Below, in pieces: positions 18,111 to 64,000 of a DNA stretch of 64,000 bases. The translations under genes and the position numbers were made by a program. Where the stretch lies: the NCBI GenBank assembly GCA_964353555.1, contig CAYGWM010000002.1, forward strand, positions 34,379 to 98,378. The letters are read 5' to 3'. The notes beneath the pieces were generated by a model that worked only from the letters and a program-made list of their open reading frames with translations, was not told the DNA's origin and ran no database searches. Each line of letters starts with the position of its first letter. The first letter of the stretch is position 1. Source of the stretch: an uncultured Spirochaetales bacterium. GTDB lineage: Bacteria; Myxococcota_A; UBA9160; PR03.

Positions 18111-18244
18111 CGGTTCGGCCTCCAGTTGACCGTCCGCCATCGATCCATCAGGCCGCGTGCTTGAGTCGAAGGGCCGATTCCGATCGTGACGCGCTGCCAG
18201 CACCCGCGAGGCGCCGCGCCCGAGATCGGCGCCAGCAGCCTCGG

Positions 18245-32186: not shown

Positions 32187-32375
32187 ATGGCACGAAGCTC
32201 CGATCCGGCTGTGACGCCGCCCCGCAGCGAGACGCGGGCGAGCTTTGTCGGCGTCGTCTGCGCCTGGTGCCGGGCCGCGATGCTGCGCCCCGGACCGAGC
32301 GTGCGCGGCCCCTCGGTGAGCCACGGACTCTGCGTGCCGTGCGCGCGCCGACTCGCCCGCAGCCACCGTCGTTAG
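32187..32375 (+). CDS. Small (62 aa) zinc-ribbon-like protein, CxxC...CxxC
   Basis: ATG 32187 within track ORF 31881..32375. The sequence is MARSSDPAVTPPRSETRASFVGVVCAWCRAAMLRPGPSVRGPSVSHGLCVPCARRLARSHRR. It has high GC3 like its neighbours and fills an otherwise empty 240-nt gap. The pattern (V)CAWC...SHG(I/L)CxxC recurs in small bacterial proteins. Confidence 0.45.
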   Translation: MARSSDPAVTPPRSETRASFVGVVCAWCRAAMLRPGPSVRGPSVSHGLCVPCARRLARSHRR

Positions 32376-33814: not shown

Positions 33815-33822
33815 GCCGTTCG

Positions 33823-36866: not shown

Positions 36867-36937
36867 CCTATCAGAACGCGGCGCAGGCCCCGGTTGCCGC
36901 TCGCAGAGCCGGCGATGTGGCCTAGTCTCCGCCCGCC

Positions 36938-38994: not shown

Positions 38995-40806
38995 TCAGAC
39001 TTCTAGCCCGACCGCGCGCATCAGCGCGAGCGCGTTGCTGCGCGTCACGACGCCCGGTCGCATCCGGTAGTCGAAGTGCATCACGCCGTCCTGGACCTGA
39101 TCCTCGAAGTGCACATTGGCTGCGCGCGCGCCGAGCTCGTCGGCGATCTTCGCGAGCGCGAGATCGTGCGTGGTGACGAGTCCGAGCGCGCCGCGCGCAA
39201 CCAGGTTTCGCACCACGGCTTCCGCGCCGATGCGCCGGTCGTGCGAGTTGGTGCCGTGCAGGATCTCGTCGAGCAGGAATAGCACGGGGATCTTGCCGGT
39301 GATCAATTCCACCACCTGGCGCAAGCGGCGGATCTCCGCGTAGAAGTGCGAATGGCCGTCCTTCAGCGAGTCGAACACGCGCAGCGACGCACCGACCGCG
39401 AGCGGCGACAGCAGCAGCGATTGCGCCCGCACCGGCGCGCCCGCCTGTGCCAGCACCGTCGCAACGCCGACGCTGCGCAGCAGTGTGCTCTTGCCGGACA
39501 TGTTCGATCCGCTCACCAGCAACAGGCGCGGCGCATCGCCGAGCCGCACGTCGTTGCGCACGCAACGCGACTCGGGCAGCAGCGGATGGCCGAGTGCCTC
39601 GGCTTCGAAGCGGGGCGGTCCGTCGCAAAGCTCCGGGAATACATCATTCGGATGTTCGTGGGCGTGGGTGGCGAGCGACGCGAGTGCCTCGAACTCGGCG
39701 GTCGCGTCGATCCACGCGCGCAGCACCGGGCCACAGCGCGCGCGCCAGGCGTCGATCGCCAGCGCAACCTGCGTGGTGAAGAACAGCGCTGCGCCGATCG
39801 GCGCGAACAATTGATTGCGACGCGCGTCGAGCACTTCGACGAGCCGTCCGAGCCGCGCGATCTCGCGGGATGCGGGAACGCCTGCGGTCGCGATTGCGCT
39901 GCGCAGCGTGACGAGGCGCGGCGACTCGAAGCGCTGCGACTCGAGCACTGCGAGCAATCGCGCGAGCAGCGCGAGATCGCGGGCCGGCGCTTCGGTTTCG
40001 GCGATCGCGCGCCGCACGCGCCGTCGCTGTGTTGCGGCGACGAAGGCGCCGATCGCCAGCACGGCGAGCCACGGGATCAGCAGCGGCGCGCCCGCGAGCG
40101 TTCCGGCGATCAGCGCCGCCGAGAGCAGCGCGAGCGCAACGAGCGCGATGCGCAGCGCCGGAGCGGGTGCGGCGGGCGCCGATTCGCCCCACCGCATCAA
40201 CGCGTCGGCATGCAGGCCGGTTGCGACCGAATCGCCGACCAGCGCCAGCGACTCGCGTAGCGCGAGCGCCGGAGCGAGCTCCGCGACCGCATGCTGGCGG
40301 CCACGCACTTCGTCGCTGGGCGCCGGGGCGAGTAGCCATCCGGCGAGCGTGGCCTCGCCCGCCGCGGTGCGCGCGCGGCACAGCAGATCGAAGAGACCCG
40401 CCTCGCCGAAGAGGTCGAGGTCGTCGGCGTACGGATGCTCGGGATCGCGAAAGCGCTCGCCGCTCGGACCCCGACCCGCGAACTTCGCGTCGAGTCGCGC
40501 GACGCCGTCTTCGTAGTAGCGGACCGAATGCTCGCGCGCGTCGCGGCGGCGCAGCACGCGGTCGTGCAGGGCGACGAGCGCCGCGAAGCCCAGCGCGGGC
40601 ACGAGCAGCCAGCGCGGATCGAGTCGCTTCGCGCCGAGCGCAACGCCGGCGAGCACGACGCCGAGCGCGAACACCGCGAGGCGCGCCTGCGAGATGCGTG
40701 TCGCGAGCCGGCGTGCCGCGGTCGCGTCGGTGCGGCGCGCAGCCAGACGTTGCTCGTACTCGGCGCGCACCTGCGCTTCGGCATCGGGAGCAGCGGCGTT
40801 GGGCAT
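38995..40806 (-). CDS. Membrane-anchored MutS-domain-V ATPase (MutS-related, no mismatch-binding domain)
   Basis: The C-terminus has LLLVSGSNMSGKSTLLRSVG (Walker A), LFLLDEILHGTNSHDR (Walker B/MutS signature) and TTHDLAL. The N-terminal 350 aa contain at least 4 hydrophobic helices (RLAVFALGVVLAGVALGA, WLLVPALGFAALVAL, IALVALALLSAALIAGTLAGAPLLIPWLAVLAIGAFVA, LFAPIGAALFFTTQVALAI). Start re-set to ATG 40806. Confidence 0.8.
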   Translation of the reverse strand: MPNAAAPDAEAQVRAEYEQRLAARRTDATAARRLATRISQARLAVFALGVVLAGVALGAKRLDPRWLLVPALGFAALVALHDRVLRRRDAREHSVRYYEDGVARLDAKFAGRGPSGERFRDPEHPYADDLDLFGEAGLFDLLCRARTAAGEATLAGWLLAPAPSDEVRGRQHAVAELAPALALRESLALVGDSVATGLHADALMRWGESAPAAPAPALRIALVALALLSAALIAGTLAGAPLLIPWLAVLAIGAFVAATQRRRVRRAIAETEAPARDLALLARLLAVLESQRFESPRLVTLRSAIATAGVPASREIARLGRLVEVLDARRNQLFAPIGAALFFTTQVALAIDAWRARCGPVLRAWIDATAEFEALASLATHAHEHPNDVFPELCDGPPRFEAEALGHPLLPESRCVRNDVRLGDAPRLLLVSGSNMSGKSTLLRSVGVATVLAQAGAPVRAQSLLLSPLAVGASLRVFDSLKDGHSHFYAEIRRLRQVVELITGKIPVLFLLDEILHGTNSHDRRIGAEAVVRNLVARGALGLVTTHDLALAKIADELGARAANVHFEDQVQDGVMHFDYRMRPGVVTRSNALALMRAVGLEV

Positions 40807-40900
40807 GGCGGCGGAGTCTCCCGAACTCGTCAGGCGCGCGCATCGTCCGGCCGCTGTAGGGAGGACCGGGACGGGGTAGGTTCCAACGCGCGAGGGGGGG

Positions 40901-42271
40901 GTGGTGGTGCAGCGATCCGTGCGTCTGGGGATTCTATTCGTCGGGCTGACCGCGCTCGTGCCAGCGTCGGCATCGGCGCAGCGAGCGGCGAAGCCCTTCG
41001 CGTTTCCGCTCGGCCGCACGCCGCTCGAGCTCGGCGCGGGCTACGACTCGCAACAGGGACTCGCGCGCGGCGAGATGGGCGCCTGCGTGGCCGGCGACGA
41101 GACTGAGCGCCGCGATGGGGCTCGCGCGCAGTACTCGATCGCGACGCTGACGCGCGCGGGCGGCCGGCTCGTCGTCGGTATCTACGTCTCGGCGCCGCTC
41201 TTCGTCGACGTGCTGAAGAGTTCCCACCTCACCGATGCCGCGCGGCGTCTCCGGGGCGCAGACGCCGAAGCATTCCGCGATCTGTGCGGCGACGGCTTCG
41301 TCGGGACGGTCACGTTCGGCGATCACCTGCTCGCCGAGGTCGAAGTCGAACCCAACGATGTGTTGCAGGCGCGCAACCATCTGATCAGCGGGAGCTGGGC
41401 GGATCCCGAGTCGTTCCGGCGGGCGCTCGAAGCGCTCGTGAAACGCCACGACGTGAGAGTGCGCGAGTTGCCGGGCGGCAGTCGCGCCGCGGCGCGCCCG
41501 CTCACGGTCGACGAACTGATCCCGCGGACGCTGGCGTTTCCGGCCAGCGTCACGCAGGCGAACGCGAAGCCCTACCTCGCCAGCTTCGAGCCGTACAGCG
41601 CCGATTCCTTCGCGGGGCTGCCGCTGCCGGAGCCGGGCGAGATCGAGGCCCGCGACATGACCGAGCAGGTGTTCCGGGATCGGCGTGGGCGCTCGCAGAG
41701 CACGGCCAGCCGGGCCGCCGACCTGCGCGCCGCGCAGGTGCATCGGACCGAGCCGGAGGAGTTGCCGTCCGCCCCGCGCGCTTCGATCGCAGAGACGCAC
41801 CCCGAGAGCGACGCGGCCACGGAGATCGCCGCGGTGCGCGAAGTTGTGCCCCCGGCTGCGCCGGCGCCCGCAACGGTGTCGCCCGCGCCGCGACTGCATT
41901 CCCAGCCGGCTCTCGTCTTCACCCCGGCTGGCGAGCTGCCGGTGTTCGCGACCACGCACGCGCCGGCCGGCGTCTACGCGGAGCGCGTGCGCGAGCGCGA
42001 CTACTGGGTTCCGGGCGCAGCCACTGCCACGCCGGCCGTGAAGCGCGCGATCGACAAAGCCCGCGCCGATGCGCCGGCTCGCGGCGCGACGGTCGTGATC
42101 GCGGAAGTGGGCACGGTAACGGTGGTGATGACCGACGCGGCGCCGGTCGGCGGCACGCACAGCGAATCTGCCGGCGAGCGGCGCGCGTGGATCGCCGGCG
42201 TCGCCGCGCCGAACGCCGCCGAGCGCGCCGCGCTCGCGGTGGCGATCGAGGCCGACGCGCGCCCGCAGTGA
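40901..42271 (+). CDS. Secreted hypothetical protein
   Basis: Signal peptide VRLGILFVGLTALVPASASA/QR and a Pro/Ala-rich linker in the middle. No family recognised. GTG start immediately follows a G8 tract. Confidence 0.6.
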   Translation: MVVQRSVRLGILFVGLTALVPASASAQRAAKPFAFPLGRTPLELGAGYDSQQGLARGEMGACVAGDETERRDGARAQYSIATLTRAGGRLVVGIYVSAPLFVDVLKSSHLTDAARRLRGADAEAFRDLCGDGFVGTVTFGDHLLAEVEVEPNDVLQARNHLISGSWADPESFRRALEALVKRHDVRVRELPGGSRAAARPLTVDELIPRTLAFPASVTQANAKPYLASFEPYSADSFAGLPLPEPGEIEARDMTEQVFRDRRGRSQSTASRAADLRAAQVHRTEPEELPSAPRASIAETHPESDAATEIAAVREVVPPAAPAPATVSPAPRLHSQPALVFTPAGELPVFATTHAPAGVYAERVRERDYWVPGAATATPAVKRAIDKARADAPARGATVVIAEVGTVTVVMTDAAPVGGTHSESAGERRAWIAGVAAPNAAERAALAVAIEADARPQ

Positions 42272-42356
42272 CGGCGAGGCGACATCGCGCCTAGAATGCC
42301 CCGACTTTCGAAGCAAGAGGACAGGCGCATGGCGGCCTGCTCAGAGGAGGGGCTCC

Positions 42357-43925
42357 GTGCGCGTTCTGCTGATCAATCCGTCGTACCCGTTCGAAGAGTT
42401 TCCGCGGCTGCTCGTGACGCTGCCCTACCTGGCGTCAGCGCTGCGCTCGGAAGGCCACGAGGTCGAAATCCTCGACCTGCTGTTGGCGCGCACCACGCCC
42501 GACAAGATCGAGCGCCGCATGGAGCGCTTCCGGCCGCAGGCCGTCGGCATCACCTCGGTCACGCTGAATCACCACATCGCCGAGAGCATCGCCGAGGTGG
42601 TGCGCAAGTGTGACGAGCAGGTGCCGATCGTGATGGGCGGCCCGCACGTCTCGTTCGAGATCGAGGGCTCGTTCCAGCGGCTGCCCGCGCTCGACTACAT
42701 CGCGATCGGCGAGGGCGAGCACACGCTGCGCGAACTCGTGCGCTCGCTCGAAGGCCGCATGGACGTGCGCGACGTGCGCGGTCTTGCCGGCATCGACCGC
42801 AGCACCGGCCGCGCCTGGAAGAACGCGCCGCGCCCGCTCGAAGACGATCTCGACACGCTGCCCAACCCGGCGCGCGATCTGGTGCCGCTGGCGCGCTATC
42901 TGGCGTTCGACAGCCACGCAAGCGTCGTCACCAGTCGCGGCTGTCCCTACGAGTGCATCTTCTGTTCGGCGCCGGCATGGACCGGGCGCAAGGTGCGCTA
43001 CCGCGATCCCGTGAAGTGCGTCGACGAAATCGAAGACCTCGCACGGATGGGCTTCACCGAGATCACCATCGAGGACGATCTGTTCACGCTCTACCGCAAG
43101 CACTTCCTCGCGGTCTGCGGAGAGATGATCGACCGCAACACGGGGATCCGCTGGAACGCGTTCTCGCGCGTGGACACGATCACGCCCGAGATCGTCGGCA
43201 CGATGGCCAAAGCCGGTTGCCAGGCGATCTGTTTCGGTGTCGAGAGCGGCGACCAGGAAGTCCTCGACCTGATCAAGAAGAACTCGAGCCTCGCCAAGGT
43301 GAAGGAAGCGATGCGGATGACGAAGGACGTGGGCATCTGCGCGCTCGCGTCGTTCATCGTCGGGCTGCCCGGCGAGACCGAGGAGACGTTGCGCAAGACC
43401 GTCGAGTTCGCGGAGGAACTGAAAAACGAGTTCGGTTCGCTCTACGGCTTCCACATCCTGTCGCCGTTCCCGGGCACCGAAGTGCGCGAGAAGGCCGCCG
43501 AGTACGGCCTCGAGATCCTGAACAGCGACTGGACGAAGTACGACGCGAATCACGTCGTGTCGCGCACGCCGGGTGCGAGTCCGGAGGCGATCCAGGCCGT
43601 GTCCGACGCCTACGAGGACACCATCGAGCGCTACGTCGAGTACCAGGACCACCTGGTCAAGACGGGCCAGCTCTCGGGCTACGAGTTGAAGACCTACCGG
43701 CGCCGCAAGCGACAGTCGCTGCTGTGGAAGTTGCTGCTCGACGAAGTGGTCGAGTCGCTTCCCGCGTTGCCGGGCGACGCACCGGAGGCGCTGACCCGTC
43801 ACGTGATCGAAGCAACCGGCGCCGAGCGGGCGCTGGTCGCGGAGGAGGTCGTGCGCGTCCTCGCCCTCGGCGCGCTAGTCGCCGACCAGACGCCCGAAGG
43901 CACCCGCTACCGCTGGGCCGAGTGA
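42357..43925 (+). CDS. B12-binding-domain radical SAM enzyme (class B rSAM)
   Basis: N-terminal Rossmann-like B12 domain (VLLINPSYPF..AVGITSVT..PIVMGGPH). Cluster motif SRGCPYECIFCSAP (CxxxCxxC), GVESGDQEVLD, and SFIVGLPGET. GGAGG lies 8 nt upstream of GTG 42357. Confidence 0.88.
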   Translation: MRVLLINPSYPFEEFPRLLVTLPYLASALRSEGHEVEILDLLLARTTPDKIERRMERFRPQAVGITSVTLNHHIAESIAEVVRKCDEQVPIVMGGPHVSFEIEGSFQRLPALDYIAIGEGEHTLRELVRSLEGRMDVRDVRGLAGIDRSTGRAWKNAPRPLEDDLDTLPNPARDLVPLARYLAFDSHASVVTSRGCPYECIFCSAPAWTGRKVRYRDPVKCVDEIEDLARMGFTEITIEDDLFTLYRKHFLAVCGEMIDRNTGIRWNAFSRVDTITPEIVGTMAKAGCQAICFGVESGDQEVLDLIKKNSSLAKVKEAMRMTKDVGICALASFIVGLPGETEETLRKTVEFAEELKNEFGSLYGFHILSPFPGTEVREKAAEYGLEILNSDWTKYDANHVVSRTPGASPEAIQAVSDAYEDTIERYVEYQDHLVKTGQLSGYELKTYRRRKRQSLLWKLLLDEVVESLPALPGDAPEALTRHVIEATGAERALVAEEVVRVLALGALVADQTPEGTRYRWAE

Positions 43926-43942
43926 GCCGACTCAGTTGACTC

Positions 43943-44069
43943 GGGGACGTTGGTTGCGCCGGTTGCGTTGGGGACGTTCGTTGCGTCGCGAAACGACGCC
44001 CCAGCTCGCACGGCCATGAAGCGCGACGCAACGAACGTCCCCAACGCAACCGGCGCAACGAGTGTCCCC
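43943..44069. repeat. 127-nt imperfect palindrome (48-nt arms, 31-nt loop), REP/MITE-like element
   Basis: The left arm 43943-43990 is the reverse complement of the right arm 44022-44069 at 45 of 48 positions (hand count; mismatches at 43949, 43950, 43952). Each arm contains two copies of GGGGACGTT(G/C)GTTGCG. Confidence 0.85.
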
Positions 44070-45551
44070 GGCGCGACGATTCGTTGCGAGGCGGTGGTGA
44101 TCGGGTCGGGCGCCGGCGGGGCGCCGGCGGCGTTGGCGCTCGCGGAGGCGGGTCTCGACGTCGTGGTGCTCGAAGCGGGCGAACGGCTCGAGACGCGCGA
44201 CTTCTCGGGCGAGGAGGGCGAGATGATTGCCCGGCTGATGACCGCGAACACCGCGCGCGACAGCGGTATCGAGGTCTACGCCGGCGCCTGCGTGGGCGGC
44301 TCGACGGTCGTGAACGACGCGCTGTGCTGGCGCCCGCCGCCCGAGATCCTCGAGAGCTGGCGCCGCGACTTCGGCCTCACGGGGCTCAGTGACGCGGCGT
44401 TCGCGCGGTACGTCGATCGCGCGTGGCAGACGGTCAACGCGTCGCCCACCGATCGCGAGCATCTGAGTCGCAACGCGCACCAGCTCGAAGTGGGCGCCGC
44501 ACGCCTCGGTTGGTCCGCCGAAGCGATGCACCGCAACGTGCGCGGCTGCGCGAATCTCGGGCTCTGCAACCTCGGCTGCCCGAGCGGCGCGAAGCAGTCG
44601 GCGCTGGTGACGTGGATCCCAGACGCGGAGGCGCGCGGCGCGCGCGTCGTGCCGCTGGCGCGCGCCGATCGCATCGAGGTCGAAGCCGGTCGCGTACGGG
44701 CCGTCACGGCGACACGCTTCGATCCGAAGACCCGCGCTCCGATCGGCGCGCTGCGCGTCGAGGCAGACGTCGTGTGTGTCGCGGCGGGCGTGCTCGGCAC
44801 GCCCGCGCTGCTGTTGCGCAGCGGGCTCGGCGCCGGCACCGCGCTCGGCCGCGGCATCCAGTTCCACTCGAGCGTTTACGTGACGGCGCGCTTCCGCGAG
44901 CCGGTACTCGGCTTCTACGGACCGACGATGGCCTACGCGGTCACCGAGTGGAGCGACGTGAACGGGCGTCGCGGCCCGGGCTACATGCTCGAGAACGTCG
45001 CGGTGTCGCCGAGCGTGACGGCGTCGTCGCTGCCCGGTTTCGGCGCCGAGCACGAGCGCGTGATGGAGGCGCTGCCGTACCTGGCGCGCGCCGTCGTCGT
45101 GCTGCGCGACTGCACGCGCGGCAGCGTCGCGACCCCGGGCGAAGGTCCTCCTGCGCTGTCGTACCAGCCCGTCGCCGACGATCTCGTGCGGATCCGCGAC
45201 GCGGTGAAGCAGCTTGCGCGTCTCTATCTCGCCGCGGGCGCGACCGAGGTGTATCTGCCGGTGAACGGTGTCGCGCCGGTCCGCTCCGAGGCCGACCTCG
45301 CGGCGCTCGACGCGGTGGAGTTCACACCTCGCGCGCTGTCGTTGCTCTACGCCGTGCACCTCTTCGGAGGCGCTGCGATGGCCGGCTCGCGTGCGCAGGG
45401 CTTCTGCGACGAGAGCGGTCGCGCCTTCGACGTCGAGGGTCTCTACGTCACCGACGCAGCGGCATTGCCGAGCAACACCGGCGCGAATCCGCAGATCACG
45501 ATCATGGCGAATGCGCTGCGCACGGCGGCGGGGATCGTGGCCGCCCGGTAG
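44016..45551 (+). CDS. GMC-family FAD-dependent oxidoreductase
   Basis: AVVIGSGAGGAPAALALAEAGLDVVVLEAG (FAD GxGxxG) and C-terminal LYVTDAAALPSNTGANPQITIMANA (GMC signature 2). The start is uncertain: ATG 44016 lies in the hairpin loop and GTG 44094 lies just before the GxGxxG. The track ORF 43950.. starts inside the left arm. Confidence 0.85.
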   Translation: MKRDATNVPNATGATSVPGATIRCEAVVIGSGAGGAPAALALAEAGLDVVVLEAGERLETRDFSGEEGEMIARLMTANTARDSGIEVYAGACVGGSTVVNDALCWRPPPEILESWRRDFGLTGLSDAAFARYVDRAWQTVNASPTDREHLSRNAHQLEVGAARLGWSAEAMHRNVRGCANLGLCNLGCPSGAKQSALVTWIPDAEARGARVVPLARADRIEVEAGRVRAVTATRFDPKTRAPIGALRVEADVVCVAAGVLGTPALLLRSGLGAGTALGRGIQFHSSVYVTARFREPVLGFYGPTMAYAVTEWSDVNGRRGPGYMLENVAVSPSVTASSLPGFGAEHERVMEALPYLARAVVVLRDCTRGSVATPGEGPPALSYQPVADDLVRIRDAVKQLARLYLAAGATEVYLPVNGVAPVRSEADLAALDAVEFTPRALSLLYAVHLFGGAAMAGSRAQGFCDESGRAFDVEGLYVTDAAALPSNTGANPQITIMANALRTAAGIVAAR

Positions 45552-45583
45552 GCTTTCGCGTCGCAGTGATTGCGGGAGTTCCG

Positions 45584-47206
45584 ATGCGCGTCCGGTTCGT
45601 GTGTCTCGAAGACGGCATGACTTCGTGTGGCTTCCGCAAGATGGCCGCGTTCGCGGAACGTCTGCACCCGGGCGTCGAGTCCTGCTACGTGTCGACGCGG
45701 CGCTACCTCGGCGTACGCTCGGCCGTTTCGGGAACGGTGGGACGAGGCCAGCTCGGTGACGATCAGGTCGACGAGATCGCCGCGGGACTCGCGGACGCCG
45801 ACGTGCTGGGCTTCTCGTCGATGACCGGTTACGCAGCGCTGACCCGCCGCGTGATCCAGCGTGTTCGCGAGCGCAACCCTTCGATCTACATGATCTGGGG
45901 CGGGATCCATCCGATCATCCAGCCGGAGGACGCGATCACTGCAGCGGTCGATGCGATCTGTACCGGCGAGGGAGAGTTCGCGTTCGAGCAGGTGCTCGCG
46001 GGACTCCGCGACGGGCGCGATGTCACCGCCACGCGGAACTTCTGGTTCAAGGGGCGCGACGGAGCGGTGATCCAGAACGCTTTCCTCCCGCTGATGACGG
46101 CCGAGGAAATGGAGGCGTTGCCGTTCCCGCTCTACGGCGCGGCGGCGGAGCGAATCTACACGCCCGGCCGGGGCTTCCTCCCGATGAGCACGCAGGACTA
46201 CCTGCTGAACGACGGCCTCGGCTACACGGCGCTGTGGTCGATCGGTTGTCCGCTGCACTGCAGCTACTGCGGCAACACCAAATTCATCGCCAACGATGCG
46301 AAGTACAAGCAGATCCGCCACCCGAGCGCTCGCTACATCGTCGAGCAGATCAAGGATGCGAAGCGGCGATTTCCGCACCTGTCGCAGGTGAGCTTCCACG
46401 ACGACAGCTTCATGGCGATCCGCTACCCGGAGATCGAGGCCTTCGCCGAACTGTGGCGCGCCGAGGTCGGACTGCCGTTCGCGATCTACGGCGTGATTCC
46501 GAACTACGTGAACCGCGAGAAGTTCGAAGTGTTGACGTGGGCCGGCATGAACCGGATCCGGATGGGCATCCAGAGCGGCAGCAAGGCGATGCTCGACTTC
46601 TACAAGCGACCCACCCCGTCCGAGAAGATCCTGGCCGCCGGTCGCGTGATCTCGTCGTTTGCGCCGAAATATCACATCCCTCCGACCTACGACATCATCG
46701 TGGACAACCCGATCGAGAGCCGGGACGACGTGCTCGCGACGCTCGAACTCCTCTACGCGATTGAGCGCCCGTACACGCTGCTGATCTACTCGCTGAAGGT
46801 GATCCCGAACACGGGACTCGCGGCGGCGCTGCAACAGCGCGGGGTCGACCTCGAACAGATCGACGACAGCTATCTGGTGATCCCTCCGCGCGTCGCGAAT
46901 CTGCTGCTCTACCTGCTCTGCCTGTGGCGGCCGCCGCGCTGGCTGTGGGAGCGCCTGCTGCGCCGGGTGCGAGCGAGTTCGGAGCCGCAACCGGTGTATC
47001 CGCGCGTCGCCGTGGTGTTGCGCACGCTCTACCTGACCAAGCGCGTTCTCGGCCATCTGCGCGTGATGGACTTCTCGATCACGCCAGGGAAGACCGGCTA
47101 CCTCTTCTGGCGCGCCGGCCTCGTCGACCTCTGGCAGAAGCGATTCCGGCGAACGCCTCCGCGGCCGGCCAGCCGGCAGCCGTTGGCGCTCCGCAGCGCC
47201 GGGTGA
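45584..47206 (+). CDS. Radical SAM enzyme with N-terminal B12-binding-like domain
   Basis: MRVRFVCLEDGMTSCGFRKMAAFAE..VLGFSSMTGYA..MIWGGIHP (B12-like domain). SIGCPLHCSYCGNT (CxxxCxxC), MGIQSGSKAMLD, and a hydrophobic/basic C-terminal tail. Start is ATG 45584. The track ORF 44423.. runs out of frame through the GMC gene. Confidence 0.85.
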   Translation: MRVRFVCLEDGMTSCGFRKMAAFAERLHPGVESCYVSTRRYLGVRSAVSGTVGRGQLGDDQVDEIAAGLADADVLGFSSMTGYAALTRRVIQRVRERNPSIYMIWGGIHPIIQPEDAITAAVDAICTGEGEFAFEQVLAGLRDGRDVTATRNFWFKGRDGAVIQNAFLPLMTAEEMEALPFPLYGAAAERIYTPGRGFLPMSTQDYLLNDGLGYTALWSIGCPLHCSYCGNTKFIANDAKYKQIRHPSARYIVEQIKDAKRRFPHLSQVSFHDDSFMAIRYPEIEAFAELWRAEVGLPFAIYGVIPNYVNREKFEVLTWAGMNRIRMGIQSGSKAMLDFYKRPTPSEKILAAGRVISSFAPKYHIPPTYDIIVDNPIESRDDVLATLELLYAIERPYTLLIYSLKVIPNTGLAAALQQRGVDLEQIDDSYLVIPPRVANLLLYLLCLWRPPRWLWERLLRRVRASSEPQPVYPRVAVVLRTLYLTKRVLGHLRVMDFSITPGKTGYLFWRAGLVDLWQKRFRRTPPRPASRQPLALRSAG

Positions 47207-47270
47207 CGTCGCTTCTGCCGGCGAACGACAGCGAAAGTTCGGTGCGGGGCGAACGGGGGAAAGGACTCGC

Positions 47271-48140
47271 GTGGGTGGGAATCTGCGACCCGGGCTGACG
47301 ACGCAGGGCGGTGATGCGTGTCCCGTCTGTGGAGCGGAGGCCGAACCGCGCATCGACCTCGGCGACTACCGGCTGTTTCGTTGCCGGCGCTGCGAGTCCT
47401 GGTCGAGCGACGCGCTGGCGCGCGGGGCGCAGACGTCCTTCGAACCCGACGCCTACTTCGCGAATGCCGACACCGATCAGGTGCGGTGGGAAGATCTGCT
47501 GGGGCGCGCGAGGATCGATCGCGCAGGCGCGGCACGAATTCTAGACGTTGGCTGCGGCCGCGGCGATTTCCTGCGCTTCCTCGGCCGACACGGCTCGCCG
47601 AGCGAGCGCTGCGGCATCGAAGTCGATCCCGTGCGCGCGGCGGCAGCGCGCGCCGCGGATCCGGGCGCACAAATCGCGACCGGCGCGGTTTCCGAAGCGC
47701 TTGCGGATCTGGCGGGCGCGTTCGACCTGATCACGCTCTGGGACGTCTTCGAGCACCTCGTCGATCCGCGCGCGGTGCTGCACGCGCTGGCCGCGCGGCT
47801 CGCGCCGGAGGGCCAGCTGTTTCTGCAGACGATTCACGAGCACAGCGTCGTGCCGACACTCGGACGCGCCCTCTACGCGGCATCGGCGGGCCGGATCAGC
47901 GGTCCGGTGCGCCGCACGCATGAGCCCCATCACCTGGTCTTCTTCAGCCGCCGCGGACTCGAGAATCTCGCGGACGAGGCGGGGCTGCGGATTCGGGAGC
48001 TCTGGTTCGATCGGCTCGCGATGGCACGGATGGACGGAAGCCGCGCGCTCACCGCGGCCACGGCGGCGCTGCTCGCGGTCGAGAATGCGCTGGGCAATGG
48101 CCTCTTCGTGAACCTGCTGCTCGAGAAGAAGCCGTTCTAG
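47271..48140 (+). CDS. Class I SAM-dependent methyltransferase with N-terminal zinc ribbon
   Basis: CPVCGAEAEPRIDLGDYRLFRCRRCESW (CxxC..CxxC) followed by ILDVGCGRGDFL (motif I) and DLITLWDVFEHL. The GTG start has GGGGGAAAGG upstream. Confidence 0.82.
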   Translation: MGGNLRPGLTTQGGDACPVCGAEAEPRIDLGDYRLFRCRRCESWSSDALARGAQTSFEPDAYFANADTDQVRWEDLLGRARIDRAGAARILDVGCGRGDFLRFLGRHGSPSERCGIEVDPVRAAAARAADPGAQIATGAVSEALADLAGAFDLITLWDVFEHLVDPRAVLHALAARLAPEGQLFLQTIHEHSVVPTLGRALYAASAGRISGPVRRTHEPHHLVFFSRRGLENLADEAGLRIRELWFDRLAMARMDGSRALTAATAALLAVENALGNGLFVNLLLEKKPF

Positions 48141-48853
48141 CGGCGTCGTGCGCGCAACAGCAGGTTCTTGCCTGCGAGCCGATGCAACGCGCGGTCGAGC
48201 CACAGGCTGACCGGGAACAGCATCCGATCATAGATCCGGACCGAACGCGCGGTGATCTGGCCGTCGGCGCGGCCGATCAGCCGATACGCGAGAGTCGCGA
48301 TGAACCCCAGCGAATCGGCGTAGCGCACGTCGTCCACGACGAAGCCCGCATCGCGAAAAAGCCGCGACAGCTCGCTTTTCCGATAGCGCCGCTGGTGTCC
48401 CACGAGCGTGTCGTTCGCGGTCCACAGCATCGAGAGAGCGGGCACGTAGATCAGGCAGCGACCGCCCGGTGCGAGGTGGTCGTGAAGCTCCCGCGCAACC
48501 TGGGCGTCGTCGGGGCAGTGCTCGAGCACGTTCACCGAAACGGCGTAGTCGAAGCGGCGTTCCCCGAGGTCGCTGAGCGCGGAGACGCTGGTCAGGTGGC
48601 GCTGCGTGAGCCGCGCGCGAAGCTCTGGATCGGGCTCGACGCAGGTGACATCGAGACCGTGGGCGGCGAGCGAAGCCGCGAGCCGCCCGGTGCCGGCGCC
48701 GAAGTCGACGACGGTCCGTGACGACCCTGCGAACGCGAGGACCTGATCGAGCAGGTAGCGGTTGTAGCGCTCGGCGTGGTCGAGTACGTCGAGCAGCGGC
48801 GTCGCTTCGAAACGGCGTTCCAAGCCGGCTACCCGCGCATCGATCGCTTCCAC
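48137..48853 (-). CDS. Class I SAM-dependent methyltransferase
   Basis: VVDFGAGTGRLAASLAAHGLDVTCVEPD (motif I/II) and FDYAVSVNVLEHC. Start set at GTG 48853, which overlaps the GT2 stop by 25 nt. The rest of the 526-aa track ORF (48854..49717) is an out-of-frame read-through of the GT2 gene. Confidence 0.8.
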   Translation of the reverse strand: MEAIDARVAGLERRFEATPLLDVLDHAERYNRYLLDQVLAFAGSSRTVVDFGAGTGRLAASLAAHGLDVTCVEPDPELRARLTQRHLTSVSALSDLGERRFDYAVSVNVLEHCPDDAQVARELHDHLAPGGRCLIYVPALSMLWTANDTLVGHQRRYRKSELSRLFRDAGFVVDDVRYADSLGFIATLAYRLIGRADGQITARSVRIYDRMLFPVSLWLDRALHRLAGKNLLLRARRR

Positions 48854-49764
48854 TGCTCGATCGTCTCCTGGTGATAGCCGGAGATCGTGTCGAGCAGCAG
48901 GCCGACGCCGAAGCTGACGGCCGCGAGGATTGCCAGCCCGGCCGCGAGAATCGCGCGTGGCACGTGGTAGACGTACGCGTGCCGGTAGAAATCGAGCACC
49001 GGCGCCGCGCCTGTGATCACCGAGAAGAGCGCGAAGATCGCCGCCACTGCGGTGAAGAACACGAACGGCTTGTAGTCCTTGAAGAGCAGGAAGATGCATT
49101 TGAAGATCAGCAAGCCGTCGCTGACGGTGTCGAGCTTCGAATGGCTTGCATCGGGCCGGCGCCCATACTCGATCGGAACCTCGAGGATCGGCAGTCCTTT
49201 GGCGAGCGCTTGCAGCGTCATCTCCGTCTCGATCTCGAAGCCTTCGGAACGCAGATGGACGAGTCGCACGAAGCGGCTCGACAGCAGCCGGTAGCCGGAG
49301 AGCACGTCGGTGATCGGCGCCCGGAAGAGCAGCGAGATGATGCGCGCGATCAGCCGGTTGCCGAGTTCGTGAAAGACGCGGAAGGCACCCGCGTCGTGGG
49401 ACTCGAGGCGGGTCGCCACGAGCATGTCGACACCGGTCTCGAGGAAGCGCTGCACCAGGCGCGGCGCTTCGGCGGCGGGGTAGGTGTCGTCGCCGTCGAG
49501 CAGCACGTAGACGTCGGCGTCGATCACGTTGGCCATGTGGCGAATCACGTTTCCCTTGCCGCGCCGCGGCGAGGCGATCACCGCGGCGCCCGACGCGCGC
49601 GCGATCTCGGCGGTCCGGTCGGACGAGCCGTTGTCGAAGACGGTGATCTCCGCGCCGGGCAGCGCGGCCTTCATGTCCTCGATGACTTTCGCCACCGTGC
49701 GCTCTTCGTTCAGGCACGGGATCACCACGGAAACACGGGGCTGTGTGGCGTGTTGCGCGAGCAC
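48829..49764 (-). CDS. Polyprenyl-phosphate glycosyltransferase, GT2 (GtrB/ArnC/DPM1-like)
   Basis: VSVVIPCLNEERTV, DNGSSDRT, and LLDGDDTYP (DxD). Two C-terminal TM helices (FFTAVAAIFALFSVITGAAPVL, AILAAGLAILAAVSFGVGLLL) complete the architecture of lipid-phosphate sugar synthases. Confidence 0.85.
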   Translation of the reverse strand: MLAQHATQPRVSVVIPCLNEERTVAKVIEDMKAALPGAEITVFDNGSSDRTAEIARASGAAVIASPRRGKGNVIRHMANVIDADVYVLLDGDDTYPAAEAPRLVQRFLETGVDMLVATRLESHDAGAFRVFHELGNRLIARIISLLFRAPITDVLSGYRLLSSRFVRLVHLRSEGFEIETEMTLQALAKGLPILEVPIEYGRRPDASHSKLDTVSDGLLIFKCIFLLFKDYKPFVFFTAVAAIFALFSVITGAAPVLDFYRHAYVYHVPRAILAAGLAILAAVSFGVGLLLDTISGYHQETIEQWKRSMRG

Positions 49765-49803
49765 GCGATCAGTCTAGGCCGGTCCGCTGCGAATTCGCCA
49801 AGG

Positions 49804-51783
49804 TCAGCCGAGTTGGCTCCATACGATCGCGCCTAGAAACGCCGCCGCCCAACAGTAGGGAAGGGCACGAATCGCATTCGGGAGACGTCGGTCGAGCGCT
49901 GCGAAGCCGAGCGCGGCCAGCACCGCGAGGGTCGGCGTCAGAGCGAGCGCGTAGAACGATTTGGCGACCGACCAGAACGGATAGTGCAGGCTCACGCTCG
50001 CGATCGAGGCGAGCAGGATCGGGGGCAATACGACGAGCAGCGAGTAGCTGATCCGACGTCCGCGATCGCTCCCGCGCAGCGCCGCGCGTATGGCGCAGGC
50101 CCACCCGAGGCCCAAAATAGGCGTGGCCGGCACGGCGAGCAGGAAGACGGCCGCCATCCACTCGTAGTTCCAGCCGGCGAATCCGAGACGCGGCGAGATC
50201 GCGCCGCTCAGTAGACCATTTCCCCACAGCGTCGAATAGAGCGCGTCCCAGAACGAATGAAAGCTGGAAAACCAGGGTTGCTCGAGCGCATCGCCGAAAC
50301 GCAGGAAGTAGTCGGCGCTGTGAAAGCCCGGGAGTTGCCACCAGCTGTTGTCGGGGTCCGCGTTCAGGTTCCAGACGAGTAAGTTGCCGGAGAGTCGGTA
50401 GTTGCGCAGATAGACCCAGCCCGCGAGCCCCGCTGTGATGGCGAGGCTCAGCGACGCGCCACCGGCCGCGCGCGCGATGCGGGTCCCCTCGACGGTCCAG
50501 CGCTTCGCCGCGAGCGTGCCCAGCAGGATCGGCACCCAGAGCAGGATCGAGTACTTGGTCAGTGCGGCAGCGCCGAATACGATCCCGAGCAGCATGTCAT
50601 CGCGTAGCGACGAGCGCTCGCGCAGCAACGCTCGCAGCGTTGCGAGCAGTGCGAGACTCGCGAGCAGCGCGTAAGGCGCTTCGTTCGAGACACAGGTGGC
50701 GAGCGTGACGTTCATCGGGAGCAGCCCGGCCATCAACGTGGAGCCCGCTGCGAGCCACGGCGCGTCCGGCGCCAGCGTTCGCGCCATGCTCCGCGCGACG
50801 AACGCCAGGCCGAGACCCGACAGGAACGGCAGCAAGACGAGGATCGCGCGGTCCCTTACACCCATCGGGCCGAGCACTCGCAGCAACGCGGCTGTGAGCG
50901 CGTGATAGAGCGGAGGGTGATACATCGCGCTGCCGTCGGTGGGGCGCGGGAGCGCGTGATGGGCGCGGATCCACTCGATGTACTGGATGTGCGCCGACGC
51001 ATCGAAGCCGACTTCAGCGGGCACGCGGGCGATCCGGTGGAACAGGAGAACCCAGAAAAGCGTCACAAGCAGGAGCGCGCCAGTGGGCGCCCATTGCGCC
51101 AGCTCCGGACGCCGTCGGAGCCACCCGAAGAGAGCGCCTCCGGCTGCGCCGAGCAACAACAGCGGCACCGCCTTCGCCCGGAGCGCTGCCGGCGGGGCCG
51201 GTAGCGCGACACTCTCCGGGTGACGGATGCTGTCCTCGGCGCGGACCGCATATGCGACCGGATCGCCCTGCCACGCCGAGATCCAGCGCTCATCGGTGGT
51301 GAGCGTCCCTGCGAGACCGTCGATCCGGAGCTGCAGCGCCGGGTTGCCGGCGGGATTCCGCACCGAGGCGAACAGTACGTTCTCGCCGGCCACCAGGTGG
51401 GGCGTCAGATCCAGCAGCGTCGCGTCCTTCCAGCGATCGGGATCGCGGCCCGGGAGCGGGAGTTCCTTCCCGTTGAGCAGTAGCGAGACCTCGCGCAGCG
51501 CGCGCACGCGCAGCGTCACATGCGTCGCTCCCGGCTTTGCGATGAACTTGCGCTCGAAAAAACTCGTCGGCGGCTTCGCCCGCTCGATCAGCATGCCGTC
51601 GGTCTGCAGCGGCGTCCGCGCGACGATCCACGGGGTGTCGTCGCGCGCGAGGAAGGGCACAGCCGGCGAACGCAGCACGTCCCAGGTGAGGACGCCTGCG
51701 ATGCCGAGTGCGAGCAGTGCCGCGATCGCGAGCTGGCCGCGCGTGAAACGGCGCTCGGCGCGCTCGACCAGATCAGCGCTCAA
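49804..51783 (-). CDS. GT-C-fold membrane glycosyltransferase (PMT_2/ArnT-like) with ~200-aa N-terminal extracytoplasmic domain
   Basis: One N-terminal TM (LAIAALLALGIAGVL), then a beta-rich soluble segment (TLRVRALREVSLLLNGKELPLP...NVLFASVRNPAGNPALQLRIDG). After that come at least 10 TM helices with GFDASAHIQYIEW and YHPPLYHAL loops typical of GT39/GT83-like enzymes. The TTG start is uncertain. Confidence 0.72.
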   Translation of the reverse strand: MSADLVERAERRFTRGQLAIAALLALGIAGVLTWDVLRSPAVPFLARDDTPWIVARTPLQTDGMLIERAKPPTSFFERKFIAKPGATHVTLRVRALREVSLLLNGKELPLPGRDPDRWKDATLLDLTPHLVAGENVLFASVRNPAGNPALQLRIDGLAGTLTTDERWISAWQGDPVAYAVRAEDSIRHPESVALPAPPAALRAKAVPLLLLGAAGGALFGWLRRRPELAQWAPTGALLLVTLFWVLLFHRIARVPAEVGFDASAHIQYIEWIRAHHALPRPTDGSAMYHPPLYHALTAALLRVLGPMGVRDRAILVLLPFLSGLGLAFVARSMARTLAPDAPWLAAGSTLMAGLLPMNVTLATCVSNEAPYALLASLALLATLRALLRERSSLRDDMLLGIVFGAAALTKYSILLWVPILLGTLAAKRWTVEGTRIARAAGGASLSLAITAGLAGWVYLRNYRLSGNLLVWNLNADPDNSWWQLPGFHSADYFLRFGDALEQPWFSSFHSFWDALYSTLWGNGLLSGAISPRLGFAGWNYEWMAAVFLLAVPATPILGLGWACAIRAALRGSDRGRRISYSLLVVLPPILLASIASVSLHYPFWSVAKSFYALALTPTLAVLAALGFAALDRRLPNAIRALPYCWAAAFLGAIVWSQLG

Positions 51784-51909
51784 GGTGATCCTCTACTGTG
51801 TTCATCGCAGTCAACTCCCCGGCGCAGGCTGCACGCTGCTGCTCGCGACGACCTTTGCTATGAACGAATGATTCGGCGCGCCATGGTATCGACGAGGAGT
51901 GAGCGCACC

Positions 51910-54141
51910 ATGTCCCGCCCGCTTCGCACGCTGTTGCTTGCCGCTCTGCTCGTTGCGGCGACGCTCGCTAGCTACGCGCCGACGTTCTCGGCGGCCTTCG
52001 TCGACATCGACGATGCCGACTATGTGCCGGAGAACGAGACGGTCAAAGCGGGCCTCGGTGTCGACGGCGTGGTGTGGGCCTTTACCGACTCGCACGCGGG
52101 CAACTGGTTCCCGCTCACCTGGATCAGCCACATGGCCGACGTGGAGCTCTTTGGCGTCGAGCCGACGGGGCACCACGCGATGAACGTCGCGTTGCACGTC
52201 GCGAACGCGCTGCTGCTGTTCCTGGCGCTGGCGTCGATCACCGGGGAGTGGGCCCCGAGTTTCGTCGTGGCCGGCCTGTTCGCGCTGCATCCGGCCAACG
52301 TCGAATCGGTGGCCTGGATCTCGCAGCGCAAGACCACGCTCGCCACGCTCTTCGGAATTCTCGCGATCTGGAGCTATGCCCGCTACGCGCGGGCCGGAAA
52401 GCGATCGTCGTACGTGCTGAGTCTCGCGAGCTTCGCGCTCTCGCTGCTGTCGAAGCAGATGTTCGTGACGTTGCCGTTCGCGCTGCTGCTGCTCGATTAC
52501 TGGCCGCTCCGGCGTGCAGAGCTGGAACCGCGCGATGGGGACGGACCGACGCTCCGCTCCATGTCGCGCGGCTGGTTGCGGCTGCTGCCCGAGAAGATCC
52601 CGTTCCTGCTGCTTGCGCTGGCTGCGAGCGTCGCGGCGATCGTCTCGCAACGCGACGCGATCTCGACGGGTGCGGCGTACCCGCTTGCGGTGCGCCTCGG
52701 CAACGTCGCGCTCTCCTACGTTCACTACCTCGGGATGCTGATCTCGCCGACGCATCTGGCGGTGTTCTACCCGCTCTACGAAGACGATGTCACGCTGGCC
52801 AGGGTGCTCGCGAGTGTCGCAGTGCTGCTCGGCATCTCAGTCGGCGTCTGGCGGTTCGGCCGAACCCGGCGCTTCCTGCTCGTCGGCTGGATCTGGTTCC
52901 TGGGTACGCTGGTGCCGGTGATCGGCCTGGTGCAGATCGGCGGGCAGTCGAGGGCGGACCGTTACGCGTACGTGCCGTTCTGGGGCCTCTTGATCGCGCT
53001 GACGTGGACAGGGTGGAATCTCGTCCAGTCGCCGGGCGCGGGCCGGGAGGTGCGTGGGGCGGTGCTTGCGGGTGTCGCAGCGCTGCTCGCGATTCTCGGA
53101 GTCCAGACGTTTCGGCAGGCGGAGAAGTGGCACGACTCGATCGCGCTCTTCGAGGACGCGGTGGCGGACACCGATCGCAACTACGTCGCGCACCGCGCGC
53201 TGGCGGGCCAGTACTTCAACCGCGGCGACTTCGCGCAGGCGCTCCATCACGCCGAGGAGGGCGCGAAGCATCCGCGCGATCTCGGCGAGGTGCTGCCGGT
53301 CTACGGAATGGCGCTCTATCAGACCGGCTCGAAGGCAAGGGCGATCGAGAAGCTCGAAGAGGCGACGCGCGTGGCGCCGAACAACGTGATGGGATTCACG
53401 AACCTCGGCTGGATCTACCTGCAGGAGGGAGACTACGAGGATGCGGTCGAATCGCTGCACGCCGCACTGCGCGTCGATCCGCAGAGCGCCCGCGCCGCCC
53501 AGCTGCTCGCGACGACGGAACTGCGCCGCGGAAATCTCGCGGAGGCCGCGACGGCATTCGAACGCGTGGTCGCACTCGAAGGGCAGAACTTCGATGCGCG
53601 GATCGAGTGGGCGCGGACGCTGGCGACACTGGAGCGCTCAGCGGAGGCCGCTGACGTTCTGCGCAGCGCGCTCGTCGCGGCGCGCCAGTTTCCCGAGGCG
53701 CAACGCAGCCGGCTGACGTCGACGCTCCACCAGTATCTCGGCGACGTTCTGCTGGCGCAGCCGGATCGCAACGGCGCTGCCGCGCACTACGAACTCGCGC
53801 TCGCGGAGTGGGCAGACAACTACGGGGCGAATCGCAATCTCGCGACGCTGCTGCTGACGACGGAGGGCGCGGTGCGCAGCGATCCCGCGCGCGCGGTGCT
53901 TCTCGCCGAGCATGCCTGCACGCTGTCGCAGCGTCGCAAGCCCGAGGCGTTGGCAACGCTTGCCTCGGCCTACGCCGCAGCGGGACGGCGCGACGACGCC
54001 GCGCGCGTCGCGCGCGAGGCGCTGGTGCTGGCGCGCGAGACGGGCAACGTCCCGATGATCGAGATGCTCGAAGCGCAACTCGGCTCTGGTGCGCAAGCGG
54101 CTCGACCGTTCGGCGAGACGGAATCGTCGTTGCATCGCTGA
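51910..54141 (+). CDS. TMTC-like GT-C glycosyltransferase (DUF1736-type membrane domain + C-terminal TPR array)
   Basis: Start is ATG 51910. TM1 is followed by FVDIDDADYV. Loop LFALHPANVESVAWISQRK and about 11 TM helices. The C-terminal ~330 aa are TPR repeats (NLGWIYLQEGDYEDAVESLHAALRVDP...). The track ORF 51520.. is over-extended. Confidence 0.8.
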   Translation: MSRPLRTLLLAALLVAATLASYAPTFSAAFVDIDDADYVPENETVKAGLGVDGVVWAFTDSHAGNWFPLTWISHMADVELFGVEPTGHHAMNVALHVANALLLFLALASITGEWAPSFVVAGLFALHPANVESVAWISQRKTTLATLFGILAIWSYARYARAGKRSSYVLSLASFALSLLSKQMFVTLPFALLLLDYWPLRRAELEPRDGDGPTLRSMSRGWLRLLPEKIPFLLLALAASVAAIVSQRDAISTGAAYPLAVRLGNVALSYVHYLGMLISPTHLAVFYPLYEDDVTLARVLASVAVLLGISVGVWRFGRTRRFLLVGWIWFLGTLVPVIGLVQIGGQSRADRYAYVPFWGLLIALTWTGWNLVQSPGAGREVRGAVLAGVAALLAILGVQTFRQAEKWHDSIALFEDAVADTDRNYVAHRALAGQYFNRGDFAQALHHAEEGAKHPRDLGEVLPVYGMALYQTGSKARAIEKLEEATRVAPNNVMGFTNLGWIYLQEGDYEDAVESLHAALRVDPQSARAAQLLATTELRRGNLAEAATAFERVVALEGQNFDARIEWARTLATLERSAEAADVLRSALVAARQFPEAQRSRLTSTLHQYLGDVLLAQPDRNGAAAHYELALAEWADNYGANRNLATLLLTTEGAVRSDPARAVLLAEHACTLSQRRKPEALATLASAYAAAGRRDDAARVAREALVLARETGNVPMIEMLEAQLGSGAQAARPFGETESSLHR

Positions 54142-54158
54142 GCGGTGCCGCGTTCCTC

Positions 54159-56222: not shown

Positions 56223-56225
56223 CGA

Positions 56226-57968: not shown

Positions 57969-58108
57969 CGGGTGCGGCGGAGACTACCACCCGCGCGACT
58001 CGCCTTGACGATGACCTCGGCAGCGAGGCAGTGTCCGCGGCCGTGCTTCGAAACCCGCAACGCCAGCATTCCTTGCGTACAACGCAGCAGTGTCGGACCG
58101 GCAGGCGC

Positions 58109-63853: not shown

Positions 63854-64000
63854 CTCGGAGTTCGAGTCGGAAGACTACCCGAGACCGCGGCGCCGCCATC
63901 GCGCGTTCTGAGCGATGCCCGGATCTGGAAAAACTTTTCCCAAGTGTGGGTAGGTGCATTCCGCATCTGGCTCGCGCGATCTCGCGATGATGCCGCGGTT

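Follow-up and report, generated by a model that had tools for sequence, protein, structure and literature searches.

We analysed a 64,000-nucleotide stretch of a contig from an uncultured soil Myxococcota (the window; GC content ∼69%), in which two radical S-adenosylmethionine (SAM) enzymes with B12-binding domains (g1 and g3), a GMC-family flavin adenine dinucleotide (FAD) dehydrogenase (g2) and a SAM methyltransferase (g4) are encoded one after another, next to a group of a methyltransferase (g5), a family 2 glycosyltransferase (GT2; g6) and a GT-C-type membrane protein (g7). We conclude, with a probability that we put at roughly 0.55, that this locus is a juxtaposition of separate units, namely unit A (g1 and g2), unit B (g4-g5-g6-g7 with GT-C and TPR-bearing paralogues) and unit C (g3), and not one cassette. 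An earlier note on this DNA had taken g1–g4 as a single cassette, and the co-occurrence across related genomes that this would imply was not seen: the four genes were found all together only in the window's own species (L086 and L087, partial contigs) and, rearranged, in one relative (L004), and elsewhere only subsets of them were present.

Because raw open reading frame (ORF) lists of the window are rich in artefacts at this high GC content, genes were defined by codon-position GC together with domain searches. Codon-position GC, Pfam and motifs upheld the four same-strand genes with short gaps and the families that the earlier note had assigned to them, all on the + strand where it had placed them, and the convergent methyltransferase, GT2 and GT-C neighbours that it had described were also found (g5, g6 and g7); the boundaries of three genes (g2, g3 and g5) were slightly corrected. 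The genes of the three units are:

g1, 42357–43925, + strand: B12-binding-domain radical SAM protein of 522 amino acids, with CPYECIFC (CxxxCxxC) at nt 42942–42965
g2, 44016–45551, + strand: GMC-family FAD dehydrogenase of 511 amino acids, with GSGAGG at nt 44103–44120 and an alternative TTG start at 43950
g3, 45584–47206, + strand: second B12-binding-domain radical SAM protein, 540 amino acids, with CPLHCSYC (CxxxCxxC) at nt 46247–46270
g4, 47271–48140, + strand: class I SAM methyltransferase of 289 amino acids, with an N-terminal zinc ribbon (CPVC...CRRC) at nt 47319–47399
g5, 48137–48853, − strand: class I SAM methyltransferase of 238 amino acids, with a GTG start at 48853 and AGGAG upstream of it
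g6, 48829–49764, − strand: polyprenyl-phosphate-type GT2 of 311 amino acids, with a DGDD motif
g7, 49804–51783, − strand: polytopic GT-C-type membrane protein of 659 amino acids (PMT_2), with at least 8 hydrophobic segments
d1, 51811–54141, + strand: PMT_2-like membrane domain joined to TPR repeats, start uncertain
54159–56222, first gene of the GT-C/TPR array after d1: TPR (Pfam)
56226–57983, same array: PMT (Pfam)
59071–61425, same array: PMT_2 and TPR (Pfam)
61409–63874, same array: TPR (Pfam)

For g2, the ATG at 44016 is the more likely start than the TTG at 43950; g3 starts at the ATG at 45584, and a 927-amino-acid ORF running from 44423 is a high-GC artefact. The intergenic gaps are 24–90 nt between g1 and g2, 32 nt between g2 and g3 and 64 nt between g3 and g4. 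On the opposite strand g5 shares 25 nt with the end of g6, and the convergent genes g4 and g5 share 4 nt at their stops.

We compared this arrangement with the loci of relatives, taking gene content, domain families, co-occurrence and sequence divergence as the observations to be explained. In L003 (g1 96% identical) the order is a MutS-like gene, a hypothetical gene and then g1-g2-g4-g5-g6-g7-d1, with no g3, and L170 likewise has g1-g2-g4-g5-g6-g7 and no g3. In L004 (95%) the order is g1-g2, a GDSL gene, and g4-g3-g5-g6-g7, and in L005 (93%) g1 is followed by three short remnants of g2 and by unrelated genes. L006, L007 and L009 (92%, 87% and 80%) have g1-g2 only, with a helicase gene next in L009. 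Moreover, blastn alignment of the window with L003 and L004 gave 86–89% identity from the MutS-like gene to the g2 stop (45547) and 74–79% from g3/g4 onward, and this step in divergence coincides with the g2/g3 junction. The step fits either a recombination boundary or the start of a faster-evolving envelope locus.

A one-genome-per-species scan gave 40 loci with g1 orthologues at 71–96% identity, labelled nearly all as Myxococcota or ‘Deltaproteobacteria’ metagenome-assembled genomes, and one further locus (L002) from contig look-ups brought the number to 41; metagenomes also hold very close homologues, at 75–100% identity. By tblastn, none of g2–g7 was present in the inspected flanks of about 33 of the 41 loci, in which g1 is 71–87% identical. 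Clustering of the neighbours around g1 showed no neighbour in more than 9 of 42 loci, and a Pfam census of two genes on each side counted luciferase-like monooxygenases (10), DoxX (8), PilZ (7) and acyl-CoA dehydrogenases (6); the 25 families found most often in these positions include no glycosyltransferase. Because about 33 of the 41 loci are without g2–g7 and the flanking genes vary, g1 is a lineage-wide conserved singleton of an uncultured Myxococcota lineage. Second-tier homologues (36–46% identity) occur in Dehalococcoidia, Syntrophus and Spirochaetota, and clustering of their neighbours gave none that was universal; the most frequent, which resembles a methyltransferase, was present in 8 of 21 loci. 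According to the earlier note, its reading would fail if the cassette turned up in other genomes with no GT2/GT-C partner and in a different conserved context; the first half of this was found, as cassette genes do occur elsewhere without GT2 or GT-C genes, and the second half was not, as no alternative conserved context such as a precursor peptide or a lipid pathway was seen around g1.

By domain content g1 is clear, with Pfam matches to Radical_SAM (PF04055; 91.7 bits, E = 7e-26, gathering score 29.5) and to the B12-binding domain (PF02310; 75.2 bits, E = 5e-21, gathering score 32.1). It falls below every equivalog cut-off in NCBIfam, with ∼190 bits for ApyD (192 versus 750 bits), PhpK (190 versus 600) and BchE (188 versus 481) alike, and the ladderane, BzaD and HpnJ models score it similarly. 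These matches bear on the idea that g1, with or without g2, is a tailoring enzyme for a ribosomally synthesized and post-translationally modified peptide or another natural product, for which ApyD and PhpK as the top NCBIfam matches and the PEP_mutase- or phosphotriesterase-family neighbours in three to four g1 loci may be cited. The ApyD and PhpK scores are, however, far under their cut-offs and similar to those of other models such as BchE and HpnJ, and the genes leave no room between them for a precursor ORF. Conservation as a singleton at 71–96% over ∼40 species, with housekeeping neighbours that vary, is also not the pattern of a biosynthetic cluster, and we consider a tailoring role extremely improbable. 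A tblastx comparison of the 600-bp flanks of g1 in the 41 loci, in which a small ORF or precursor was sought, was dominated by matches in low-complexity high-GC sequence. As a separate observation, in a few species phosphotriesterase-family (4) and PEP_mutase-family (3) genes are no more than two genes away from g1, which is worth noting because PhpK-type P-methyltransferases are among the sub-threshold top NCBIfam matches of g1.

The second gene of unit A has a much narrower distribution. Only members of the nearest sub-clade (L003, L004, L006, L007, L009 and L170) have g2 after g1, and in L005 the gene g2 has decayed to three remnants (L005:11566–12159) that align to window positions 44082–44248, 44588–44726 and 45392–45536. 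Because g2 is a pseudogene in L005, it is dispensable for g1, and from this pattern g2 is a recent, dispensable companion of g1. The protein has all the features that define the GMC family, that is, both domains (GMC_oxred_N, PF00732, 150.7 bits, E = 7e-44; GMC_oxred_C, PF05199, 62.5 bits, E = 8e-17), the GSGAGG motif and the His448/Asn487 active-site pair, and the motif and the pair are conserved in six orthologues. Also invariant in the six is a cysteine triad, C178/C184/C188 (nt 44547–44579), which the earlier note had missed and which aligns, in a weak match of 38 bits, with C212/C218/C222 of the alpha subunit of Burkholderia FAD-glucose dehydrogenase (6a2u_B). We take these three cysteines of 6a2u_B to be the ligands of its 3Fe-4S cluster, and a 3Fe-4S cluster in g2 is thus a probable prediction. 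The best single match of g2 is cholesterol oxidase (53 bits), and no cytochrome c was seen among the window proteins scanned for domains. In L008 a different GMC gene (L008:12094–13698, − strand), 30% identical to g2 and with the same Cys-x5-Cys-x3-Cys spacing, lies convergently 0.5 kb downstream of an 87% identical g1 orthologue; this is a weak hint that g1 and a Cys-triad dehydrogenase work together, and it could be a second independent pairing or chance.

In contrast with g1-g2, the link to the glycosyltransferases that the earlier note had drawn from adjacency in one genome extends beyond that genome for g4 and, more loosely, for g3. The convergent triad of g4 facing g5-g6 is kept in 9 of 11 g4 loci, over g4 identities of 58–97%: the window with L003, L004 and L170 (g4 77–79% in these three), L085 and L169 (70–74%), and L166, L168 and L171 (58–60%). 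In L085, L166 and L168 the evidence comes from tblastn, and in L169 and L171 from called genes and Pfam; these five loci have the triad with neither g1 nor g2 nearby. Homologues of g5 at 46–78% identity occupy the same position in L003, L004, L085, L166 and L168 (tblastn), a Methyltransf_23 gene stands at the g5 position in L169–L171 (called genes, Pfam), and even in L166 and L168 g5 and g6 are still 46–49% and 56–58% identical to the window proteins. g3 lies beside g4 in five loci.

The triad invariably has a polytopic membrane protein next to it, which is g7-like in the closer loci. g7 is syntenic in L003, L004 and L085 (tblastn, 55–64%), and a membrane gene of similar size follows the GT2 in L169 and L170. 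The corresponding proteins of L166 and L168 form a separate family (577–597 amino acids, 44% mutual identity, 8 hydrophobic segments), in L171 a 559-amino-acid protein without Pfam match stands in this position, and in L168 and L171 the gene overlaps the start of g4. Furthermore, a GDSL-type esterase gene precedes g4 in L004, L085 and L169, d1 is syntenic with the block in L003, L004 and L085, and TPR and PMT genes come after the block in L169 and L170. As a side observation, the window has at 51811–63874 an array of five large genes that encode PMT/PMT_2 with TPR or TPR alone and reach up to the window's end, and comparable arrays are found after the triad in L167, L169 and L170.

The families of the block agree with a role in lipid-linked glycosylation. 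g6 matches Glycos_transf_2 (PF00535) in Pfam and AglJ with 220 bits (cut-off 325), its PDB matches are DPMS (5mlz) and ArnC, and its C-terminus has two hydrophobic segments (residues 231–290); with the features of that family in place, we assign g6 by its sequence to the polyprenyl-phosphate GT2s of the DPM1/GtrB/ArnC/AglJ type. g7 scores 29.7 bits with PMT_2, against a gathering score of 26.1. g4 (Methyltransf_23, E = 2.5e-26) and g5 are class I methyltransferases of a generic kind, the nearest proteins being UbiG and CalS10, which are also the best solved relatives of g4. A scan of the genes, which did not cover short ORFs exhaustively, gave no small membrane protein resembling GtrA.

The model of the earlier note joins g1–g4 and g5–g7 in one pathway, in which g2 would oxidize, g1 and g3 would C-methylate or rearrange and g4 and g5 would O-methylate a sugar, giving an unusual polyprenyl-phosphate sugar for the GT-C protein. 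The single strand, the short gaps and the lack of a terminator agree with it, as do the solved members of the Cys-triad GMC subgroup of g2, which are sugar dehydrogenases, and the existence of four related loci (the window, L003, L004 and L170) in which g1-g2 adjoins the block. These four loci are, however, close relatives (g1 at least 95% identical in L003 and L004, g4 77–78% in L003, L004 and L170), and their shared adjacency therefore counts as a single event. About 33 of the 41 g1 loci lack the block in the inspected flanks, the block occurs without g1-g2 in the five loci named above, g2 has decayed in L005, and the divergence step falls at the g2/g3 junction. We regard a single pathway as very unlikely, and return to separate units as the preferred reading.

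Both radical SAM enzymes can be placed in a superfamily more readily than in a reaction. g3 matches Radical_SAM (PF04055; 47.1 bits, E = 4e-12, gathering score 29.5) and the B12-binding domain (PF02310; 46.0 bits, E = 6e-12, gathering score 32.1), and is only 22–25% identical to g1. A PDB sequence search gave AprD4, QCMT (9CCB; PMC12931638), TokK, TsrM, OxsB and CysS as solved relatives of the two. AlphaFold2 models of g1 and g3 (pLDDT 77 and 81) had the same class B enzymes as best Foldseek matches in the PDB (for g1, TsrM, AprD4, TokK, OxsB and QCMT), with query-normalised TM-scores (TMq) of 0.43–0.62 at 13–23% identity; the models do not tell methylases from enzymes of other chemistry. Sequence and models thus place g1 and g3 in the class B (B12-binding domain) radical SAM superfamily, where cobalamin binding and methyl transfer are predictions only. 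AprD4, which is structurally close, does not bind cobalamin (PMC12931638). Because methylation, ring contraction and (diol) dehydration are all represented among the solved relatives, the class B label fixes no chemistry, and the earlier note's expectation of methylation was too narrow: the nearest solved relatives include the non-methylating AprD4 and OxsB, and HpnJ and Cds are proposed ring-contractases (PMC13459092). The classification by hidden Markov models against characterized class B members that the note had suggested gave no assignment, as neither g1 nor g3 reaches any NCBIfam equivalog cut-off, those of HpnR, AprD4 and QCMT included (best for g3, 79 versus 251 bits, TIGR04013). Leads from Tes, Mss, Grs and branched glycerol dialkyl glycerol tetraether (GDGT) biosynthesis were set aside, as neither sequence nor fold connects g1 or g3 with them and the PDB matches do not include tetraether synthase.

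g3 behaves as a gene that comes and goes beside the triad. It adjoins g4 in five loci and at least four arrangements (g3-g4 in the window, overlapping in L167, g4-g3 in L004, divergent in L105 and 2 kb apart in L085), and is absent from L003 (the closest relative), L166, L168, L170 and L171. Because this adjacency persists through rearrangement, a functional tie of g3 to g4 is indicated, and its presence in some near relatives and absence in others marks it as an accessory gene. Its homologues (65–79% identity) include several labelled Actinomycetota, Solirubrobacteraceae or Baekduia, and over the family the mean column identity is 69%, with a basic and hydrophobic helical C-terminus within the conserved region. 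In 80 metagenome loci and three long contigs with g3, the other genes (g1, g2 and g4–g7) are almost never nearby. The immediate neighbours (n = 121) include a DtxR/MntR-type repressor just upstream (18), ferritin-like and VIT1 proteins (8), SARP-type regulators (8), class I methyltransferases (7) and YfhO/PTPS-related polytopic membrane proteins (4, located 25–33 bp downstream), and polyprenyl-phosphate-type GT2s lie near g3-family genes in L085, L088, L135 and L132.

Several further observations concern the g3 family itself. A DtxR/MntR-type repressor gene is found directly 5′ of stand-alone g3 homologues in 17–18 loci (L083, L084, L090–L107 and others), which suggests, from gene context, metal-responsive regulation of these homologues, and CobW-type GTPases also recur near g3-family genes. 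The gene is duplicated in tandem in L128, L148 and L152. In L085 an IS200/Y1-type transposase (L085:7016–7822) stands immediately 5′ of the g3 homologue among fragmentary gene calls, which may reflect mobility or assembly errors.

This distribution is also relevant to a second alternative, that g3, g4 and g5 modify the isoprenoid carrier, another membrane lipid or a quinone, and that their linkage to g6 and g7 comes from a shared polyprenyl substrate or a shared membrane location. Among named proteins, g4 and g5 are closest to UbiG-type polyprenyl-quinol O-methyltransferases, the conserved basic and hydrophobic C-terminal region of g3 suggests membrane association, homologues 65–73% identical to g3 occur in contigs with no triad nearby, and characterized B12-type radical SAM enzymes that modify lipids exist (HpnP/HpnR and Gmm; PMC13459092). 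On the other hand, the UbiG scores are far under the cut-off (46 versus 103 bits), the gene with which g4 and g5 are tightly conserved is a polyprenyl-phosphate glycosyltransferase and not a prenyl or quinone gene, and YfhO-like proteins or GT2s are present in some g3-family loci. We hold such a lipid or quinone substrate to be unlikely.

Separate units remain our preferred reading, and the following points weigh against it or against the roles that it gives to g3. The short gaps and the lack of a terminator make co-transcription of g1–g4 possible in the window's genome; no convincing terminator was found between g1 and g4, and promoter and terminator counts over 42000–52200 were not above those of shuffled sequence. 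The four genes could also have been recruited into one pathway within the window's lineage, and the divergence step could have arisen from faster evolution of envelope genes rather than from separate ancestry. The neighbourhood counts cover at most 10 kb on each side of each locus. Among the window proteins scanned for domains, no flippase, nucleoside diphosphate-sugar enzyme or cobalamin gene was seen. In L169 the triad is present and g3 is not within 10 kb of it. Most members of the g3 family (65–73% identical) are solitary, beside DtxR-type repressors, VIT1 and SARP-type regulators instead of glycosylation genes, and these solitary, metal-regulator-linked homologues speak for a substrate of g3 that is not specific to the glycosylation module.

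With separate units, a working scheme can be drawn, in which the substrates and the reactions are all ones that we infer. In unit A, the orphan g1 and the downstream g2 acquired in one sub-clade would carry out a separate two-enzyme step on an alcohol or carbonyl substrate, probably a small molecule or a lipid alcohol or carbonyl; the comparison gave no evidence that unit A feeds the glycosyltransferases. Unit B would be a periplasmic glycosylation module like those of Gtr and DPM-PMT, in which g6 would attach a hexose to polyprenyl phosphate on the cytoplasmic side of the membrane, the soluble g4 and g5 would methylate or otherwise modify the lipid-linked sugar or its product and, once this has been flipped across, g7 and the TPR-bearing GT-C paralogues would transfer it to envelope acceptors. 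Unit C, g3, would be a mobile accessory enzyme that has repeatedly landed beside g4, and by analogy its most plausible role, confined to the strains that carry it, is one more radical step on the lipid-linked sugar of unit B, either C-methylation or a ring rearrangement like those proposed for HpnJ and Cds. The wider proposal, that the g3 family, which is widespread in at least two phyla, modifies a polyprenyl-phosphate hexose by C-methylation or by a carbocycle-forming ring contraction before GT-C export, and that together with the triad it makes up an undescribed donor route in soil Myxococcota and Actinomycetota, is decidedly unlikely.

Most B12-type radical SAM enzymes have no assigned function and genome neighbourhood is the main lead to one, and a neat row of same-strand genes in one genome can give the false picture of a ‘cassette’; here the comparative context separates the orphan g1 from the glycosylation module. 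No description of this combination of genes turned up in searches of the literature. If g3 does act on a polyprenyl-phosphate sugar, chemistry of the HpnJ/Cds type would be extended to the universal bacterial glycan carrier, and methylated or rearranged sugars on Myxococcota envelope glycoconjugates would be indicated. If it does not, the locus would be an ordinary mosaic of uncharacterized enzymes.

The first 30 kb of the window are housekeeping genes, and upstream of g1 lie a 456-amino-acid protein without Pfam match, a MutS-like gene, UbiB, GlpD, a FAD-linked oxidase and a glycerol-kinase-like gene. The MutS-like protein (38995–41019, − strand, 674 amino acids) has domain V and a weak domain III only, with no mismatch-binding N-terminus, and its gene is syntenic with g1 in L003–L006, L009 and L170. 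The cluster at 32372–38578 (an FGGY-family kinase, FAD_binding_4/FAD-oxidase_C, a GlpD-like dehydrogenase and a UbiB/ABC1 kinase) is kept with the g1 region in L003–L005 and may serve glycerol or ether-lipid metabolism. An Rfam scan of the window found two tRNAs only and no cobalamin or SAM riboswitch; the tRNAs, tRNA-Val(CAC) and tRNA-Arg(CCG), lie within 14209–14441, between pyrG and ilvH. A GT28/EryCIII-like glycosyltransferase gene adjoins ilvB (16884–18263).

Among known systems, the class B enzymes TsrM, TokK, CysS, QCMT/MgmA and OxsB and the cobalamin-free AprD4 share with g1 and g3 the N-terminal B12-binding Rossmann domain and the CxxxCxxC radical SAM core, whereas the C-terminal domains of g1 and g3 differ from theirs. 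HpnJ, for the hopanoid cyclitol ether, and the calditol synthase Cds are B12-type radical SAM enzymes that act on lipid-anchored sugars and are proposed to be ring-contractases (PMC13459092). With g3 they share the proposed logic of a B12-type radical SAM enzyme beside a glycosyltransferase that places a sugar on a lipid. Both g1 and g3 match HpnJ in NCBIfam, but with 151 and 55 bits against a cut-off of 578. The g3 locus has no hopanoid genes (hpnI/hpnK), and the lipid would be polyprenyl phosphate rather than a hopanoid or GDGT. g2 shares its GMC domains and the aligned cysteine triad with the alpha subunit of the FAD-dependent glucose dehydrogenase of Burkholderia and the large subunit of the fructose dehydrogenase of Gluconobacter, but unlike these FAD sugar dehydrogenase complexes it has no adjacent gene for a cytochrome c or a small Tat-signal subunit, its neighbours being g1 and g3.

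The block has in common with GtrA/GtrB/GtrC, DPM synthase with PMT, CsbB/YfhO and PgfS/PgfM a DPMS/ArnC/AglJ-like GT2 with C-terminal membrane segments beside a polytopic GT-C protein. It differs from Gtr- and DPM-type systems in that no GtrA-like flippase was seen and two methyltransferases are fixed convergently with the GT2, and also in the optional radical SAM enzyme and GDSL esterase and the several TPR-fused GT-C paralogues. O-mannosyltransferases of the TMTC type combine GT-C with TPR, and the downstream genes of the window likewise join a PMT_2-type membrane domain to C-terminal TPR, although these are bacterial and the comparison is one of architecture only. In the Agl pathway of Haloferax, AglP methylates a dolichol-linked sugar, and the g6/g7 block likewise has methyltransferases next to its glycosyltransferases.

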